A stretch of 64,000 bases of DNA from Escherichia coli (lineage in GTDB: Bacteria; Pseudomonadota; Gammaproteobacteria; Enterobacterales; Enterobacteriaceae). The stretch is taken from assembly GCF_003334335.1 (NCBI RefSeq), contig NZ_QOWQ01000005.1; one strand, 5' to 3'. The translations under genes were made by a program, and so were the position numbers. How positions within the stretch are numbered: position 1 is the first letter of the stretch; every line of letters starts with the position of its first letter. Below the pieces are notes generated by a model that saw only the letters and a program-made list of their open reading frames with translations, was not told where the DNA came from and did not search any database. Positions 49,622 through 56,622 of this stretch are shown here, one piece after another.

Positions 49622-51337
49622 ATGAATTCGTTACAAATCTTGAGTTTTGTCGGTTTTACGCTGCTGGTGGCGGTGATCACCTGGTGGAAGGTCCGCAAAA
49701 CAGATACCGGATCGCAACAAGGCTATTTTCTTGCCGGACGTTCACTAAAAGCGCCGGTTATTGCCGCTTCGTTAATGCTAACCAACCTTTCCACGGAACA
49801 ACTGGTCGGCCTTTCCGGGCAGGCCTACAAAAGCGGCATGTCGGTGATGGGCTGGGAAGTGACTTCAGCGGTGACGCTGATCTTCCTCGCGCTAATCTTT
49901 TTACCGCGCTATCTGAAGCGCGGCATTGCCACCATCCCCGATTTTCTGGAGGAACGTTATGATAAAACGACGCGTATTATCATCGACTTCTGCTTCCTAA
50001 TTGCCACCGGCGTCTGCTTTCTGCCGATTGTTCTCTACTCCGGCGCGTTGGCGCTCAACAGCCTGTTTCACGTCGGGGAATCGCTACAGATTTCTCACGG
50101 TGCGGCTATCTGGCTACTGGTAATTTTGCTTGGTCTGGCGGGAATTTTGTATGCGGTGATCGGCGGACTGCGCGCAATGGCAGTGGCGGACTCCATCAAC
50201 GGTATTGGGCTGGTTATCGGCGGGTTGATGGTGCCGGTATTTGGCCTGATCGCGATGGGCAAGGGCAGCTTTATGCAGGGCATTGAGCAACTCACCACCG
50301 TTCACGCCGAGAAATTAAACTCAATCGGTGGCCCGACCGATCCCTTGCCGATTGGCGCGGCATTTACCGGTTTGATTCTGGTGAACACCTTTTACTGGTG
50401 TACAAATCAGGGCATCGTGCAACGCACGCTGGCGTCAAAAAGCCTGGCGGAAGGGCAAAAGGGGGCGCTGTTAACGGCGGTGCTGAAAATGCTCGACCCG
50501 CTGGTACTGGTGCTGCCAGGGTTGATTGCGTTTCATCTGTATCAGGATTTACCGAAAGCCGACATGGCCTACCCGACGCTGGTCAATAACGTTCTGCCAG
50601 TGCCAATGGTGGGTTTCTTCGGCGCGGTGTTATTTGGTGCGGTGATCAGTACCTTCAACGGCTTTCTGAATAGCGCCAGTACGTTATTCAGTATGGGTAT
50701 TTACCGTCGCATCATTAACCAGAATGCCGAGCCGCAGCAGCTGGTCACCGTCGGGCGCAAATTTGGTTTCTTTATCGCTATCGTTTCGGTGCTGGTCGCG
50801 CCGTGGATCGCCAACGCGCCGCAGGGGCTGTATAGCTGGATGAAACAGCTCAACGGCATTTACAACGTGCCGCTGGTTACCATCATCATTATGGGCTTTT
50901 TCTTCCCGCGCATCCCGGCGCTGGCGGCAAAAGTAGCGATGGGGATTGGCATAATCAGCTACATCACCATCAACTATCTGGTGAAGTTCGACTTCCATTT
51001 CCTCTATGTGCTGGCCTGTACGTTCTGCATCAACGTGGTCGTGATGCTGGTGATCGGTTTTATCAAACCGCGCGCCACGCCGTTCACCTTCAAAGATGCG
51101 TTTGCGGTGGACATGAAACCGTGGAAAAACGTCAAGATCGCGTCAATTGGCATCCTGTTCGCGATGATTGGCGTCTATGCCGGGCTGGCTGAATTCGGCG
51201 GCTACGGTACGCGCTGGTTAGCGATGATCAGTTATTTCATTGCCGCCGTAGTGATTGTCTACCTGATTTTTGACAGCTGGCGGCATCGTCACGACCCAGC
51301 CGTAACCTTTACTCCCGACGGGAAGGATAGCCTATGA
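49622..51337 (+). CDS. yidK: Sodium:solute symporter (SSS family) YidK (571 aa)
   Basis: Polytopic SSS/SGLT-like transporter; stop overlaps yidJ start. Confidence 0.88.
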   Translation: MNSLQILSFVGFTLLVAVITWWKVRKTDTGSQQGYFLAGRSLKAPVIAASLMLTNLSTEQLVGLSGQAYKSGMSVMGWEVTSAVTLIFLALIFLPRYLKRGIATIPDFLEERYDKTTRIIIDFCFLIATGVCFLPIVLYSGALALNSLFHVGESLQISHGAAIWLLVILLGLAGILYAVIGGLRAMAVADSINGIGLVIGGLMVPVFGLIAMGKGSFMQGIEQLTTVHAEKLNSIGGPTDPLPIGAAFTGLILVNTFYWCTNQGIVQRTLASKSLAEGQKGALLTAVLKMLDPLVLVLPGLIAFHLYQDLPKADMAYPTLVNNVLPVPMVGFFGAVLFGAVISTFNGFLNSASTLFSMGIYRRIINQNAEPQQLVTVGRKFGFFIAIVSVLVAPWIANAPQGLYSWMKQLNGIYNVPLVTIIIMGFFFPRIPALAAKVAMGIGIISYITINYLVKFDFHFLYVLACTFCINVVVMLVIGFIKPRATPFTFKDAFAVDMKPWKNVKIASIGILFAMIGVYAGLAEFGGYGTRWLAMISYFIAAVVIVYLIFDSWRHRHDPAVTFTPDGKDSL

Positions 51338-52827
51338 AACGCCCCAATTTTCTGTTCGTCATGACCGATACCCAGGCCACCAATATGGTCGGTTGCTATA
51401 GCGGTAAACCGCTGAATACGCAAAATATTGATAGTCTGGCGGCGGAAGGTATTCGCTTTAATTCCGCCTACACCTGTTCACCGGTTTGTACGCCTGCACG
51501 GGCCGGACTATTTACCGGTATCTACGCTAACCAGTCCGGCCCGTGGACCAACAACGTCGCGCCAGGCAAAAACATCTCCACTATGGGGCGCTACTTTAAG
51601 GATGCCGGCTATCACACCTGTTACATCGGCAAATGGCATCTCGACGGTCATGACTATTTCGGCACTGGCGAGTGTCCGCCGGAGTGGGACGCTGATTACT
51701 GGTTCGATGGGGCGAACTATCTTAGCGAACTGACGGAAAAAGAGATTAGCCTGTGGCGCAATGGCCTAAACAGCGTCGAAGATTTACAGGCGAACCATAT
51801 CGACGAAACCTTCACCTGGGCGCATCGTATCAGCAATCGGGCGGTGGATTTTCTGCAACAGCCTGCGCGCGCAGACGAGCCTTTCCTGATGGTGGTTTCG
51901 TATGATGAGCCGCATCACCCGTTCACCTGTCCGGTGGAGTATTTAGAGAAATACGCTGATTTTTACTACGAGCTGGGCGAGAAAGCACAGGATGACCTGG
52001 CTAACAAACCGGAACATCACCGCTTATGGGCGCAGGCGATGCCATCGCCAGTCGGTGATGACGGGCTTTATCACCATCCGCTCTATTTTGCCTGTAATGA
52101 CTTTGTTGATGACCAAATCGGACGGGTCATCAATGCCTTAACGCCAGAGCAACGTGAAAATACGTGGGTTATTTATACCTCCGATCACGGCGAAATGATG
52201 GGCGCACATAAGCTGATCAGTAAAGGGGCGGCGATGTATGACGACATCACCCGCATTCCGCTGATCATCCGTTCGCCGCAAGGGGAGCGGCGACAGGTCG
52301 ATACGCCAGTCAGTCATATCGATTTACTGCCGACAATGATGGCGCTGGCAGATATTGAAAAACCAGAGATTCTGCCGGGGGAAAATATCCTTGCCGTGAA
52401 AGAGCCACGCGGCGTGATGGTGGAATTTAACCGCTACGAGATTGAGCATGACAGCTTTGGCGGTTTTATTCCGGTGCGTTGCTGGGTGACGGATGACTTT
52501 AAACTGGTACTCAACCTCTTCACCAGTGATGAACTTTACGATCGCCGTAATGACCCAAATGAAATGCATAACCTGATCGATGATATCCGTTTTGCAGACG
52601 TTCGCAGCAAAATGCATGACGCCTTATTGGATTACATGGACAAAATTCGCGATCCGTTCCGCAGTTACCAATGGAGTCTGCGTCCGTGGCGTAAAGATGC
52701 ACGGCCGCGCTGGATGGGGGCGTTTCGTCCACGTCCACAAGATGGCTATTCGCCAGTTGTACGCGACTATGACACCGGCCTACCGACACAAGGGGTGAAG
52801 GTGGAGGAGAAAAAACAGAAGTTCTGA
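51334..52827 (+). CDS. yidJ: Cys-type sulfatase YidJ (497 aa)
   Basis: Sulfatase signature CTPARAGLFTG (C-x-P-x-R) near N-terminus, metal-binding DTQ near start. Confidence 0.9.
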   Translation: MKRPNFLFVMTDTQATNMVGCYSGKPLNTQNIDSLAAEGIRFNSAYTCSPVCTPARAGLFTGIYANQSGPWTNNVAPGKNISTMGRYFKDAGYHTCYIGKWHLDGHDYFGTGECPPEWDADYWFDGANYLSELTEKEISLWRNGLNSVEDLQANHIDETFTWAHRISNRAVDFLQQPARADEPFLMVVSYDEPHHPFTCPVEYLEKYADFYYELGEKAQDDLANKPEHHRLWAQAMPSPVGDDGLYHHPLYFACNDFVDDQIGRVINALTPEQRENTWVIYTSDHGEMMGAHKLISKGAAMYDDITRIPLIIRSPQGERRQVDTPVSHIDLLPTMMALADIEKPEILPGENILAVKEPRGVMVEFNRYEIEHDSFGGFIPVRCWVTDDFKLVLNLFTSDELYDRRNDPNEMHNLIDDIRFADVRSKMHDALLDYMDKIRDPFRSYQWSLRPWRKDARPRWMGAFRPRPQDGYSPVVRDYDTGLPTQGVKVEEKKQKF

Positions 52828-52873
52828 CGATAATGCCCGCTGATGATCACCCGGCGGGCATTATTCAGGCTGC

Positions 52874-53323
52874 TTAAACCAGTGAACCGCCGGTCAGGAA
52901 GGAAAAGATAAGGAATATCAGCAAAATGCTGCACACGATGCCGATACCAAAAAGCAAGGTATGGAAAGCCAGCGTCCCGCCGCCAAAAACCAGCGCGCCG
53001 CGAATGCCCCAGCGATTTTCCTTACGCATACCGCCAATAAATGCGCAAAGTAGCGCAGCAATGGCCAGTGCGATACCGCTTTGATTGAGGATTTTATCGA
53101 CATCTACGTCCTCTTTTTTCTCCACGGTGGTAATTTTTTCGCCTTTTATTCCGGCGAGAAGACCTCTTTTAATTTCAGCCGTTTTGTCCGCCACGATGCT
53201 TTCAAACGTTGGCGGTGGTGCGGAGAAAGGGCCGAATGAAAAGTGGATAATCCCCATCATTAAAGCGATGGCACCGAACAGCATGCCCAATGAACTGATT
53301 TTATTTTGAGCTATGATACCCAT
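52874..53323 (-). CDS. yidI: Small inner-membrane protein YidI (149 aa)
   Basis: Trimmed to MGIIAQNKISSLGMLFGAIALMMG…; hydrophobic. Confidence 0.8.
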   Translation of the reverse strand: MGIIAQNKISSLGMLFGAIALMMGIIHFSFGPFSAPPPTFESIVADKTAEIKRGLLAGIKGEKITTVEKKEDVDVDKILNQSGIALAIAALLCAFIGGMRKENRWGIRGALVFGGGTLAFHTLLFGIGIVCSILLIFLIFSFLTGGSLV

Positions 53324-53430
53324 CTGACCTCCTTGTAGCGGATGGCAAAAGCATATCAGGAAACGGGCGGACGAAATTCTTAAAAAAACCGCTAAAGGTA
53401 GAGCGTTAGTGAAATTGCAAAGGAGCAACA

Positions 53431-53778
53431 ATGAAAATTTCCCGCCTCGGAGAAGCGCCTGATTACCGCTTCTCGCTGGCTAATGAGCGTACTTTTCTGG
53501 CGTGGATCCGTACTGCACTAGGATTTCTGGCGGCGGGGGTTGGGCTTGATCAACTTGCGCCAGATTTCGCCACGCCCGTCATTCGCGAACTGCTGGCGTT
53601 GTTGTTGTGTCTGTTTTCCGGCGGGTTAGCGATGTATGGCTACTTGCGCTGGTTACGCAATGAAAAAGCGATGCGTCTGAAAGAGGACCTGCCCTACACC
53701 AACAGCTTATTAATCATTAGCTTAATATTGATGGTCGTGGCGGTGATCGTTATGGGACTGGTGTTGTATGCCGGATAG
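53431..53778 (+). CDS. yidH: DUF202-family small membrane protein YidH (115 aa)
   Basis: ERTFLAWIRT motif typical of DUF202; overlaps yidG start by 11 nt. Confidence 0.85.
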   Translation: MKISRLGEAPDYRFSLANERTFLAWIRTALGFLAAGVGLDQLAPDFATPVIRELLALLLCLFSGGLAMYGYLRWLRNEKAMRLKEDLPYTNSLLIISLILMVVAVIVMGLVLYAG

Positions 53779-54130
53779 CCGCAAAGCCAGACGCATTGCC
53801 GACCCAGGACTGCAGCCGGAGCGCACATCACTGGCGTGGTTTCGTACCATGCTGGGCTACGGCGCGTTGATGGCGTTGGCTATCAAACACAACTGGCACC
53901 AGGCGGGCATGTTATTCTGGATTTCGATTGGCATTCTCGCCATCGTGGCGCTGATCCTCTGGCACTACACCCGTAATCGCAATTTAATGGATGTCACGAA
54001 TAGCGATTTTTCCCAATTTCACGTAGTCCGTGACAAATTTTTGATCTCCCTCGCGGTGTTATCTCTCGCAATACTGTTTGCTGTAACGCATATACATCAA
54101 CTTATCGTATTTATTGAGAGAGTCGCATGA
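53768..54130 (+). CDS. yidG: DUF202-family small membrane protein YidG (120 aa)
   Basis: ERTSLAWFRT motif, paralogous to yidH; overlaps yidF start. Confidence 0.85.
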   Translation: MPDSRKARRIADPGLQPERTSLAWFRTMLGYGALMALAIKHNWHQAGMLFWISIGILAIVALILWHYTRNRNLMDVTNSDFSQFHVVRDKFLISLAVLSLAILFAVTHIHQLIVFIERVA

Positions 54131-54624
54131 CAGGAAGTCAGGTCATTGATGCTGAAGAGGACAGGCATAAACTGGTTGTAGAGTACAAGGATGCTCTGCA
54201 ACCTGCCGATTTTTATCACAATTTCAAACAGCGGGGCATCCGCTCCGTACAGCTCATTCCCTATCTTGAATTTGATGACCGGGGCGATCTGACGGCCGCT
54301 TCGGTGACAGCAGAGCTGTGGGGGAAATTTTTAATTGCCCTGTTCGAGTGTTGGGTGCGGGCAGATATCAGTCGTATCTCGATTGAGCTTTTTGACGCCA
54401 CCTTACAAAAATGGTGTGGCAGCGAAAACCCGCAACCGCGCTGTGACTGCCAGGCGTGCGACTGGCATCGCCTGTGCCCGCACGCTCGGCAGGAGACGCC
54501 AGACAGCGTGCTTTGTGCGGGCTATCAGGCGTTTTATTCTTACTCCGCACCGCATATGCGGGTGATGCGTGATCTGATAAAGCAGCATCGTTCTCCCATG
54601 GAGCTGATGACGATGCTGCGGTGA
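54127..54624 (+). CDS. yidF: YidF, Cys-rich protein resembling the C-terminal (SPASM-like) part of an anaerobic sulfatase-maturating enzyme (165 aa)
   Basis: C-terminal cluster CDCQACDWHRLCP…CAGY; no N-terminal CxxxCxxC radical-SAM motif present. Confidence 0.8.
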   Translation: MTGSQVIDAEEDRHKLVVEYKDALQPADFYHNFKQRGIRSVQLIPYLEFDDRGDLTAASVTAELWGKFLIALFECWVRADISRISIELFDATLQKWCGSENPQPRCDCQACDWHRLCPHARQETPDSVLCAGYQAFYSYSAPHMRVMRDLIKQHRSPMELMTMLR

Positions 54625-54631
54625 CGTGCGC

Positions 54632-55816
54632 TTAAACGGGCTGCCCCTGATGCGACATCCGCGTCGCCAGCGGCAGCCAGCACAGCACGATCAACAATCC
54701 CATTAAGGTCATCAACAACCCCAGGCTGCCCTGACCGGTTTGCGGCAACATCGCAGAGAGCGACGCCAGCACGCCGGAACCAATGTTTTGCAGACCGCCG
54801 ACCAGCGCGCCAGCCGTGCCCGCCAGGAAGGGGAACGGCTCCATCGCGCCGCTGGTCGCCAGCGGAAACAGCATCCCGGCACCGAAAAAGAACAGCGCGG
54901 CGGGAACGAGCAGCGTCCAGACATTCATCACGCCAAACCAGTCGGGGATCCACATCAGCAAGCCAGCCAGCAGGCAGCAGATAACCGACTGCCACATTAA
55001 CGTGGAGAAGCGTTTATTGGGACGTCCGGCAAACCATGCGCCAAAAAACGCTGCCGGAATCGGCAGAATAAACAAAATACTGACCGTCATACTGCTCAGC
55101 CCTAACACCGCGCCCATCAGCACGCCGGAGCAGGCTTCAAAGGCGGCAATCCCGGCCAGACCGCCAATCAGCATCAGCAAATAACAGTTAAAACCGCTGT
55201 TACCGAAAAGCGTTTTATAACTGGTAAGCAGGCGCGTGCGCGGTGCATCGACCGGACGCGTTTCCGGCATCCAGCGGGCCATACTGAAGGTCACACCAGC
55301 ACAAAGAACCAACAAAAAGAGATAACAGGCGCGCCAGTTCCACATCGTATCCAGCAGACCGCCGATTAGCGGTGCGAGCAACGGACTGACGAGAATCCCC
55401 ATGTTTAACAGGCTGTTAGCATGGCGCAACTGTGTCCGTTCATATAAATCTCGCGGTAAAGTACGCGCCATTACGCCGCCAACGCCGGTGCCCATCCCCT
55501 GCATCGCGCTGGCGGCAATCAACACCGTCAAACTGGAGGTCGTGACCGCGACCAGCGTTGCCAGCATAAAAATGGACATTCCGACGAGGATCACCGGTCG
55601 GCGGCCCACGCGGTCGGAAATCGGGCCATAAAACAGCTGTGAGACACCGTAAGTCAGCAGATAAGCGCCCATTACGCTCTGCACCGCCCCTTCACGGACG
55701 TTGAGATCGCGCGCCATATCGGCAATAGCTGGAATATAAATGGTTTGCGCCATCTGACCGACGGCCACGAGTAATACCAACATCAATAACAAATTGACGT
55801 TTCTTTGCCTTTTCAT
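54632..55816 (-). CDS. emrD: MFS multidrug efflux pump EmrD (394 aa)
   Basis: Trimmed to MKRQRNVNLLLMLVLLVAVGQMAQTIYIPAI…; 12-TM MFS. Confidence 0.92.
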   Translation of the reverse strand: MKRQRNVNLLLMLVLLVAVGQMAQTIYIPAIADMARDLNVREGAVQSVMGAYLLTYGVSQLFYGPISDRVGRRPVILVGMSIFMLATLVAVTTSSLTVLIAASAMQGMGTGVGGVMARTLPRDLYERTQLRHANSLLNMGILVSPLLAPLIGGLLDTMWNWRACYLFLLVLCAGVTFSMARWMPETRPVDAPRTRLLTSYKTLFGNSGFNCYLLMLIGGLAGIAAFEACSGVLMGAVLGLSSMTVSILFILPIPAAFFGAWFAGRPNKRFSTLMWQSVICCLLAGLLMWIPDWFGVMNVWTLLVPAALFFFGAGMLFPLATSGAMEPFPFLAGTAGALVGGLQNIGSGVLASLSAMLPQTGQGSLGLLMTLMGLLIVLCWLPLATRMSHQGQPV

Positions 55817-56095
55817 TATCACGGATGCTTTTATAAAAATAATTAGAATAAGTCACTACGCATTCCCATAAATGCGGGAGAGGAATCTATCACATTGATG
55901 AATGTTAGCCAGATATACGCCAGGAATGGGGAATTGTTTAGCGGCAGAATATGTAAACAAAAGCGGCAATAAATGTTGCCGGGAGAGATGGTAGGGCGGA
56001 TAAGATGCGTCAGCATCGCATCCGACACCAACCCGCACGCTAAATATAAAAGGGGAGCGGTTTCCCGCTCCCCTTTGGTGCGACTTGAATCTGAA

Positions 56096-56185
56096 TTACT
56101 TCAGGTATTTCAGAACAGCATCAAGCAGTTGCAGTGCTGCAACAATGAGTTTGAGGATAAGAATGGCGATATCCACCAGGTTCAT
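56096..56185 (-). CDS. tisB: Type I toxin TisB (29-aa SOS-induced membrane peptide), not in ORF track
   Basis: Reverse-complement translation gives MNLVDIAILILKLIVAALQLLDAVLKYLK-stop; followed on the minus strand by a terminator hairpin (about 56050-56078). Confidence 0.93.
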   Translation of the reverse strand: MNLVDIAILILKLIVAALQLLDAVLKYLK

Positions 56186-56421
56186 ACGCGTCTCCTGTGG
56201 TTCAGGAGCACTGCCAGCTGACGTACCTTTCCGCTGCCTGTTGCCAGCTGTTGTGCACGCGGTATCTCAAGGAGAAACGTTGTGCTTGTTGACATAACAC
56301 AGTGTGCTCACGCGGGGTTAAGGCGCTGACGGCACCACCCGTTTCAGCCAGGACTTAGTGCGCCGGGTAACGATGCGGCCCCCGCATAACACATTGCGTA
56401 CAGTGATATTATAGAAGTTTA

Positions 56422-56437
56422 CTGTATAAATAAACAG
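56422..56437. promoter_or_regulatory. LexA box (SOS box) between divergent tisAB and istR
   Basis: CTGTATAAATAAACAG matches the CTGT-N8-ACAG consensus perfectly. Confidence 0.9.
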
Positions 56438-56479
56438 TAATATTTGGACAAAACGCAAACTGTGATCGATACTCAACTA

Positions 56480-56622
56480 TGCACTAAATACGTCAAAATT
56501 CGTGCCGAAATTGCGCGTTCTGCGCGGAACACGTATACTTTCAGTGTTGACATAATACAGTGTGCTTTGCGGTTACCAGCCGCAGGCGACTGACGAAACC
56601 TCGCTCCGGCGGGGTTTTTTGT
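56480..56622 (+). ncRNA. istR: IstR antitoxin sRNA (IstR-2 about 140 nt; IstR-1 about 75 nt from about 56546; shared terminator)
   Basis: Candidate promoters (TTGGAC-18-GATACT; tatact at 56534-56539), 21-nt stretch 56546-56566 nearly identical to 56288-56308 in the tisAB leader, terminator gaaacctcgctccggcggggtttttt; 5' ends approximate. Confidence 0.75.

Follow-up and report, generated by a model that had tools for sequence, protein, structure and literature searches.

YidH and YidG are two small membrane proteins of Escherichia coli, encoded by overlapping genes (Table 1) within a stretch of 64,000 nucleotides of contig NZ_QOWQ01000005.1 (assembly GCF_003334335.1), which is called the window below. 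They could be the two types of subunit of a small hetero-oligomeric anion pore, built like the transmembrane part of VTC (the vacuolar transporter chaperone), which would release the sulfate arising from desulfation in the cytoplasm. The probability of this reading, which is argued by analogy, is put at roughly 0.4, and its parts differ in strength: a heteromeric Vtc-like assembly is likely; conduction of anions by YidH and YidG, an argument from the same analogy, is about an even chance; and sulfate as the physiological substrate is a tentative suggestion, somewhat on the unlikely side. The most specific version, a stand-alone, Vtc-like, heteromeric and probably pentameric oxyanion channel that lets sulfate out of cells desulfating imported sulfated sugars, is similarly doubtful.

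The initial annotation of this region, made from the letters of the DNA, described a cluster of three small membrane proteins of unknown function (yidI, yidH and yidG), two of them being overlapping DUF202 paralogues with a common motif. The gene coordinates and the 11-nt overlap that it gave are correct, and the motif reads NERTFLAWIRT in YidH and PERTSLAWFRT in YidG. Both proteins match Pfam DUF202 (PF02656): YidH with 68.6 bits (6.3e-19) over model positions 1–68 of 68, and YidG with 44.0 bits (3e-11) over positions 1–57 of 68. Pairwise BLASTP of YidH and YidG aligned the 17-residue motif region alone, with a similarity beyond chance (E = 8e-5), and an alignment of the two family profiles extends over 84 columns and all three helices (probability 97.6%, E = 2.6e-12); the two are true paralogues. 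The size of DUF202 can be gauged from the 1,773 clusters at 50% identity that match YidH alone.

The pairing was surveyed by scanning one genome per species with the YidH family profile, and 80 loci were kept, coming from Enterobacteriaceae, Vibrio, Psychromonas, Marinobacter, Pseudomonas, Azospirillum, Ancylobacter, Xanthobacter and many actinobacteria. At all 80, in proteobacteria and actinobacteria alike, a G-type gene (motif ERTxL(A/S)WxRT) directly follows the H-type gene. The H-type signature is PDYRFSLANERTFLAWIRT and the G-type signature is DPGLQPERTxLAWxRT. Hidden Markov models (HMMs) of the two subfamilies, built from non-enteric sequences only, gave E. coli YidH 154 bits with the H-type model vs 41 bits with the G-type model, and E. 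coli YidG 73.5 bits with the G-type model vs 13.9 bits with the H-type model. As models without enteric members separate the two E. coli proteins, the duplication predates these lineages; judged by sequence, it is ancient and the subfamilies are older than the split between proteobacteria and actinobacteria. Tandem duplication, as initially proposed, is thus correct as to paralogy but not as a local, recent event, which is ruled out by the subfamily scores together with the H-then-G order across phyla.

The stop of the H-type gene and the start of the G-type gene overlap in 62 of the 80 loci and lie no more than 20 nt apart in 77, counts for which the start codon nearest the upstream stop was taken, a choice that favours short distances. 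Of the 24 enterobacterial orthologues of the yid locus, 22 have an overlap of 11 nt and two have one of 8 nt; in 32 other loci the genes overlap by 4 nt (e.g. ATGA, GTGA). That most loci have an in-frame start at the stop codon agrees with coupled translation, and the translational coupling put forward earlier gains from this conservation while still being read from the sequence. The ratio of nonsynonymous to synonymous substitution rates (dN/dS) is 0.008–0.06 for yidH and 0.045–0.11 for yidG, as low as for emrD, which indicates strong purifying selection on both genes.

The fold points to VTC. In a sequence search of the PDB, YidH alone matched yeast Vtc1 over its full length (E = 0.0025), the YidH family profile matched Vtc1, Vtc3 and Vtc4 (4.6e-7, 5.6e-4 and 0.07, respectively), and Vtc1 was the best PDB sequence match of the YidG profile. 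PF02656 is the recognized transmembrane domain of VTC subunits (PMC12526157). The AlphaFold2 model of YidH (predicted local distance difference test score, pLDDT, 92) has helices at residues 12–42, 49–82 and 92–114, and three equivalent helices are seen for YidG in a linked model of the two proteins (see below). Foldseek comparison of the YidH model with the PDB returned VTC transmembrane domains as all of its top five matches, with TM-scores of 0.67–0.76; the three-helix fold that YidH has in common with VTC (PDB 7YTJ, 8I6V, 9UMG) superposes with a TM-score of 0.75 and a root-mean-square deviation of 2.4 Å over 108 columns.

The residues that make the VTC pore can be followed into YidH and, in part, into YidG. 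VTC contains a pentamer of such transmembrane domains, the five first transmembrane helices (TM1) forming the polyphosphate channel (PMC9911596); Vtc1 K24 and R31 and their equivalents form basic rings, with the constriction at R31 (PMC9911596; bioRxiv 10.1101/2023.01.27.525886), and Vtc1 E30 forms an “ionic lock” with R83 of the adjoining subunit (bioRxiv 10.1101/2023.01.27.525886). The motif ANERTFL(A/S)W at the start of TM1 in VTC is the same in YidH, and the conserved (N/P)ERTxL(A/S)WxRT stands at the entry of TM1 in both family alignments. Invariant in 82 homologues of YidH are R13, A17, N18, E19, R20, T21, L23, R27, T28 and W74, of which R13, E19 and R20 are the alignment equivalents of Vtc1 K24, E30 and R31. 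The spacing of seven residues between R13, R20 and R27 places these three arginines on one helix face. For the partner of E30 in the lock, YidH W74 aligns with Vtc1 W82; the next residue is variable, and R73, R76 and R82 are nearby. In the YidG family, R19, T20 and R26 are invariant and E18 and R71 nearly so; YidG keeps the equivalent of R31 (R19) in addition to R26, its R71 aligns with Vtc1 R83, and the base equivalent to K24 of VTC is missing (D12 or P13 is there instead).

Positively charged residues are distributed in the same way in the two families. The mean number of K plus R is 4.4 (H) and 3.1 (G) in the N-terminus and 4.7 and 4.3 in loop 2, vs 0.3 and 1.5 in loop 1 and 0.3 and 0.1 in the C-terminus, which puts the N-terminus and loop 2 inside in both. 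As the positive-inside counts match, YidH and YidG are parallel, with the N-terminus inside as in VTC, and not antiparallel; VTC is itself an assembly of like-oriented paralogous subunits, as is proposed for YidH and YidG. A model of YidH-(GGGGS)6-YidG, i.e., with a 30-residue linker, made with 49 rows of paired orthologues, had a predicted TM-score (pTM) of 0.77, with the linker disordered and both domains confident, which suggests a defined interface between the two proteins.

Further evidence comes from the genes that accompany the pair. The fullest enterobacterial form of the yid locus, seen in Citrobacter werkmanii, Kluyvera and Pseudocitrobacter, consists of yidL, yidK, yidJ, yidH, yidG and a full-length sulfatase maturase gene (370–374 amino acids, radical SAM/SPASM). 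Other orders are importer, sulfatase, maturase, H, G (Vibrio sp. S17_S38); SSF, sulfatase, maturase, H, G (a locus at 41% GC); sulfatase, H, G, maturase (Azospirillum); phosphotransferase system (PTS), sulfatase, GntR, H, G, maturase (Rahnella, Phytobacter); PTS, sulfatase, RpiR, H, G (Phytobacter, Cedecea); H, G, maturase and, on the opposite strand, sulfatase (Vibrio hannami, V. variabilis); and sulfatase, N-acetylglucosamine (GlcNAc) kinase, H, G (V. gelatinilyticus). In all, the pair stands beside sulfatase and maturase genes in at least seven gene orders, with at least four sulfatase subfamilies. In 18–21 loci the G-type gene is directly followed by a maturase gene of the same strand, the two usually overlapping by 4 nt, and a sulfatase gene lies within 8 kb of the pair in 16–19 loci, 16 of 18 nearby sulfatases being within 4 kb and the rest at 4–8 kb. 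All 12 sulfatases inspected near pairs are of the Cys type; in 11 of them the fold begins at residue 3–5 and there is no signal peptide, so these 11 are taken to be cytoplasmic, and the twelfth, from Mycobacterium, looks like a mis-called start. Phytobacter massiliensis has three H–G pairs (L034, L047, L051) and Vibrio hannami two (L041, L044), each beside a different cytoplasmic Cys-type sulfatase; each of these sulfatases has a sugar importer and a regulator of its own. Of six distant homologues picked at random, two were again in loci with sulfatase and maturase genes, and other neighbours include sugar importers and amino-sugar enzymes. The maturases of Vibrio, Rahnella and Phytobacter (L032, L039, L044, L051) carry a SEC-C-like metal-binding tail (CPCGSGxKxKxCC), which those of the enterobacterial yid loci do not have.

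From these observations a mechanism can be proposed. YidH and YidG would be made together from their overlapping reading frames, and both would insert with the N-terminus in the cytoplasm. They would pack side by side in an oligomeric ring, their first helices lining a central path furnished with ladders of invariant arginines at seven-residue spacing (YidH R13, R20 and R27; YidG R19 and R26) and, beside the ladders, an invariant glutamate, whose VTC counterpart locks adjacent subunits together. With the VTC pentamer as a guide, the result would be a strongly anion-selective pore opening to the cytoplasm. In the presumed ancestral operon (importer, cytoplasmic Cys-type sulfatase, YidH, YidG and sulfatase maturase), a sulfated sugar would be imported and its sulfate removed in the cytoplasm, with no obvious exit for the sulfate otherwise; efflux through the pore would be driven by the membrane potential, inside negative. 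Where the pair stands alone, it might be a general oxyanion release channel. The situation may be compared with that of Fluc/CrcB, also small proteins, often encoded by two adjacent paralogous genes, that form an anion channel for efflux down the membrane potential; this analogy is functional only, as Fluc/CrcB has no relation in sequence or fold to YidH/YidG and forms antiparallel dimers, whereas same-orientation subunits and a larger ring are expected for YidH/YidG. The niche proposed here, removal of sulfur oxyanions, is also that of TauE/SafE (PF01925), found in organosulfonate and some sulfatase loci; TauE/SafE proteins are larger and belong to an unrelated family, and YidH and YidG have no Pfam match to PF01925.

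Several observations weigh against this proposal. Solitary H-type genes, with no G-type partner, occur in two loci, one in an actinobacterium of 71% GC (L094, 4001–4351) and the other in a locus with GH16, sulfatase and maturase genes (L101, 5001–5360), and so the heteromer is not obligatory; the latter locus also encodes an exporter of the TauE/SafE type, which could be the real exit for sulfate or sulfite. The pTM value comes from a linker-fused monomer model and is indirect as to pairing. The VTC pore works only when docked to its polymerase, and no such partner is present here. The pair is without a nearby sulfatase in Raoultella, in Citrobacter farmeri, in several Enterobacter, in all of the actinobacterial loci sampled but one, and in a locus beside rpsB; with so many sulfatase-less pairs, sulfate is not the sole role, or else a generic channel may have been recruited. 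The tightest linkage is with the maturase and not with the sulfatase, three loci having H, G and maturase genes and no sulfatase (L020, L028, L030). Finally, in a screen for exporters of D-alanine, based on cross-feeding, YidH reached the last round and YidG passed the first only; overproduction of YidH supported cross-feeding, had no effect on transport and left D-alanine accumulation unchanged (PMC10299036). Two single-chain H–G proteins in the AlphaFold database (AFDB; A0A653BLN5 and B0RCT9) may be real fusions or frameshift artefacts and are weak evidence; one of the two entries, probably a bacterial contaminant, is assigned to a beetle genome. Two long matches with two aligned stretches, from a search of representative sequences, look like read-throughs across frameshifts in GC-rich DNA.

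The link to sulfatases is genuine, if only partial: co-occurrence with sulfatase genes, which the initial annotation suggested checking, recurs, and many genomes carry the pair alone. This leaves room for an alternative that is rather unlikely and yet deserves to be taken seriously, namely that the pair is a self-contained membrane module unrelated to sulfate (acting in ion or solute leak, stress or membrane organization), its placement by sulfatase genes being hitch-hiking. The sulfatase-less loci listed above are what such a module would lead one to expect, as is the variability of the yid region in E. coli itself. Moreover, among the actinobacterial neighbours no family recurs across genera, in an analysis that used crude calling of open reading frames (ORFs) and was noisy, with antisense ORFs. 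Hitch-hiking accounts less well for an association that recurs in so many gene orders, with different sulfatase subfamilies and with multiple pairs within one genome, for the short distances to most nearby sulfatases, and for the consistently cytoplasmic type of the adjacent ones.

The other main rival, an improbable one, is that the pair is a membrane anchor or partner needed in vivo by the radical SAM sulfatase maturase. The maturase gene follows yidG directly in the 18–21 loci counted above and accompanies the pair in the three loci without a nearby sulfatase; the V. hannami locus L044 has a gene for a regulator of the CRP/FNR type just upstream of H, G and maturase, and in V. variabilis, with the same gene order, no CRP/FNR-type gene was identified. 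Against such a partnership, the pair has no conserved Cys or His for electron transfer, its invariant residues being Arg, Glu, Asn, Thr and Trp on TM1, and it is under strong purifying selection even where the maturase is deleted or decayed (E. coli, Citrobacter, Leclercia, Raoultella). Anaerobic sulfatase maturases work in soluble form, both in vitro and when produced in heterologous hosts.

The fold and the basic pore rings held in common with VTC, and the fact that bacterial polyphosphate is made in the cytoplasm, could also suggest that the pair is a bacterial channel for polyphosphate translocation, with the same job as the VTC ring. This is very unlikely, as translocation by VTC is coupled to the polymerase docked on the pore (PMC9911596). 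VTC has SPX domains, catalytic tunnel (TTM) domains and a polymerase partner, whereas YidH and YidG are bare transmembrane domains of 115 and 120 amino acids; no gene for a TTM or SPX domain was found among the neighbours in any sampled locus, nor a polyphosphate kinase gene beside the pair. Instead of the polyphosphate context of VTC, the recurrent partners of YidH and YidG, encoded by overlapping genes, are cytoplasmic sulfatases and maturases. Lastly, an antiparallel pair of dual topology, like Fluc/CrcB or the paired SMR proteins, for which small, homologous, adjacent membrane-protein genes are the typical layout, has next to no likelihood, being ruled out by the positive-inside counts, which give both families the same bias with the N-terminus inside.

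Table 1. Features of the yid locus, with positions in the window
Feature	Positions	Strand	Description
yidK	49622–51337	+	solute:sodium symporter; NCBIfam NF007790, 856 bits; RefSeq name yidK
yidJ	51334–52827	+	Cys-type sulfatase without signal peptide; matches arylsulfatase and choline-sulfatase models
hairpin between convergent yidJ and yidI	52823–52868		13-bp, GC-rich, terminator-like on both strands
presence/absence segment	52830–53419		about 590 bp: hairpin, yidI, yidI–yidH spacer
yidI	52874–53323	-	149 amino acids, hydrophobic; ATG at 53323
yidH	53431–53778	+	115 amino acids; H-type DUF202 subunit, three predicted transmembrane helices, N-terminus inside
yidG	53768–54130	+	120 amino acids; G-type DUF202 subunit, three predicted transmembrane helices, N-terminus inside
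yidH stop/yidG start overlap	53768–53778	+	11 nt, ATGCCGGATAG
yidG/yidF overlap	54127–54130	+	4 nt, ATGA
yidF	54127–54624	+	165 amino acids; relic, with two deletions, of a radical SAM enzyme for anaerobic sulfatase maturation

The locus in the window can be read against this background. Its DNA is 100% identical to sequenced and annotated E. coli chromosomes, and the gene order is yidK-yidJ-yidI-yidH-yidG-yidF, followed by emrD, all being RefSeq-annotated E. coli genes; the cluster does lie between the sulfatase gene yidJ and a maturase remnant, as first described. RefSeq annotates the same yidH, yidG, yidI and yidF in E. coli and gives no function, the product names being “YidH family protein”, “DUF202 domain-containing protein”, “protein YidI” and “radical SAM protein”. 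YidK is the importer of the operon, and its orthologues are encoded upstream of the sulfatase in Citrobacter, Kluyvera, Pseudocitrobacter, Phytobacter and one Vibrio. The YidJ translation contains CTPAR (the C-x-P-x-R signature), and in the orthologue from C. werkmanii CTPARAGLFTG is at residue 52 and the mature fold starts from residue 3; by these sequence features YidJ is classed as a cytoplasmic type I (formylglycine) Cys-type sulfatase. No Rfam match at E <= 1 was obtained in 51000–56500, and no sigma-70 consensus promoter was found in 52700–54800. An origin in a defence system was rejected, as none of the four genes had a PADLOC match, and so was an origin in a phage, with no PHROGs match for YidI, YidH or YidG.

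The third member of the initially described cluster, YidI, does not belong to the unit, and to speak of a cluster of three is misleading. YidI is indeed hydrophobic, of the length reported, and encoded divergently from yidH, with a spacer of 107 nt; the mechanical ORF list has it begin at a TTG (53431) instead, but RefSeq annotates a gene of 450 nt. It had no match in a Pfam-A scan or in NCBIfam and no similarity to YidH or YidG, and the best hit of a PDB sequence search, a toxin (E = 0.13), is not credible. It has 110 relatives, all from Enterobacteriaceae where the organism is named, which are tagged as a YidI-only Pfam family (PF27700). The divergent arrangement with yidH recurs in Klebsiella huaxiensis, a Citrobacter and Phytobacter, and in a Leclercia the gene is located elsewhere; the dN/dS of yidI is 0.15–0.22. 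The full yidI segment is missing from 1,704 of 5,421 complete E. coli genomes (~31%), in which yidJ-yidH-yidG-yidF are contiguous; E. coli of the B2 type are without yidI. In comparison with E. coli O6:K2:H1, identity runs to the yidJ stop and resumes at the yidH ribosome-binding site AAGGAGCAACAATG; in place of the segment that strain has about 47 unrelated bases, and yidH follows yidJ after 59 nt (cf. L002, 7953–8011). Without the yidI cassette, yidK-yidJ-yidH-yidG-yidF look like one operon. The lack of homology to H or G, the narrow range, the indel polymorphism and the separate site in Leclercia led to the rejection of yidI as a third member, and the sequence comparisons mark it as a dispensable, lineage-specific accessory neighbour. 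The strong hairpin between yidJ and yidI has a folding energy of -25.4 kcal/mol (z = -4.9) on the plus strand and -23.1 kcal/mol (z = -3.2) on the minus strand; a simple terminator scan missed it because it has no T-run. In E. coli ST540 the place of yidL-yidK-yidJ-yidI, immediately upstream of yidH, is taken by an IS200/IS605 element (L003, 6177–7957) with a tnpA pseudogene and an intact gene for the RNA-guided endonuclease TnpB/InsQ.

The maturase remnant was rightly recognized as such at the outset. Of the models for anaerobic sulfatase maturases, YidF covers no more than the middle and the C-terminal parts: TIGR03942 is matched at positions 160–245 of 363 only, and the NCBIfam score is 75 bits vs a cutoff of 349. 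Alignment with full-length neighbours shows that YidF keeps the first four codons of the full-length maturase and that it has lost about 170 residues including CxxxCxxC, i.e., the radical SAM core, and about 60 residues of the SPASM domain. Neither CxxxCxxC nor an intact CX2CX5CX3C is present in YidF; the full-length genes that occupy this position in C. werkmanii, Kluyvera, Vibrio, Azospirillum, Rahnella and Phytobacter have both motifs. Judged by these alignments, E. coli yidF is a decayed, doubly deleted maturase gene, and the RefSeq name “radical SAM protein” is misleading for a protein of 165 amino acids from which the radical SAM core is deleted. Despite the lost catalytic motifs its dN/dS vs Escherichia relatives is 0.135–0.14, and remnants of 165–176 amino acids persist in Citrobacter, Leclercia and Klebsiella huaxiensis. 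Possibly, yidF retains some function and is not a neutral pseudogene.

The genes, their membership of DUF202 and the link that Pfam draws between DUF202 and VTC were already known. In the literature searched, no assigned function for bacterial DUF202 proteins was found, nor any residue-level transfer from the VTC structures, any account of the H/G pairing or of the placement beside cytoplasmic sulfatases and maturases; the D-alanine exporter screen was the sole experimental mention found in the literature on yidH, yidG, yidI, yidJ, yidK and DUF202. The functional reading of YidH and YidG thus appears to be new. If the channel reading is wrong, the firm results remain, namely that the pair is ancient and looks obligate, that yidI is a dispensable insertion and that yidF is a relic left by deletions, and these correct the current picture of the locus. 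The function left blank by the initial annotation can in any case be narrowed, as the pair has its fold and key pore residues in common with Vtc1, the channel subunit of VTC: the 2023 structures of VTC provide a mechanistic template, a pore lined by TM1 and ringed by arginines, which carries over to YidH and YidG at the level of single residues. If the proposal is true, it would give prokaryotic DUF202 proteins their first function and explain two of the y-genes of E. coli; it would add a new path of sulfate efflux in bacteria, the missing exit step in cytoplasmic sulfatase pathways; and YidH and YidG would represent the free-living ancestor of a pore that eukaryotes later fused to a polyphosphate polymerase.

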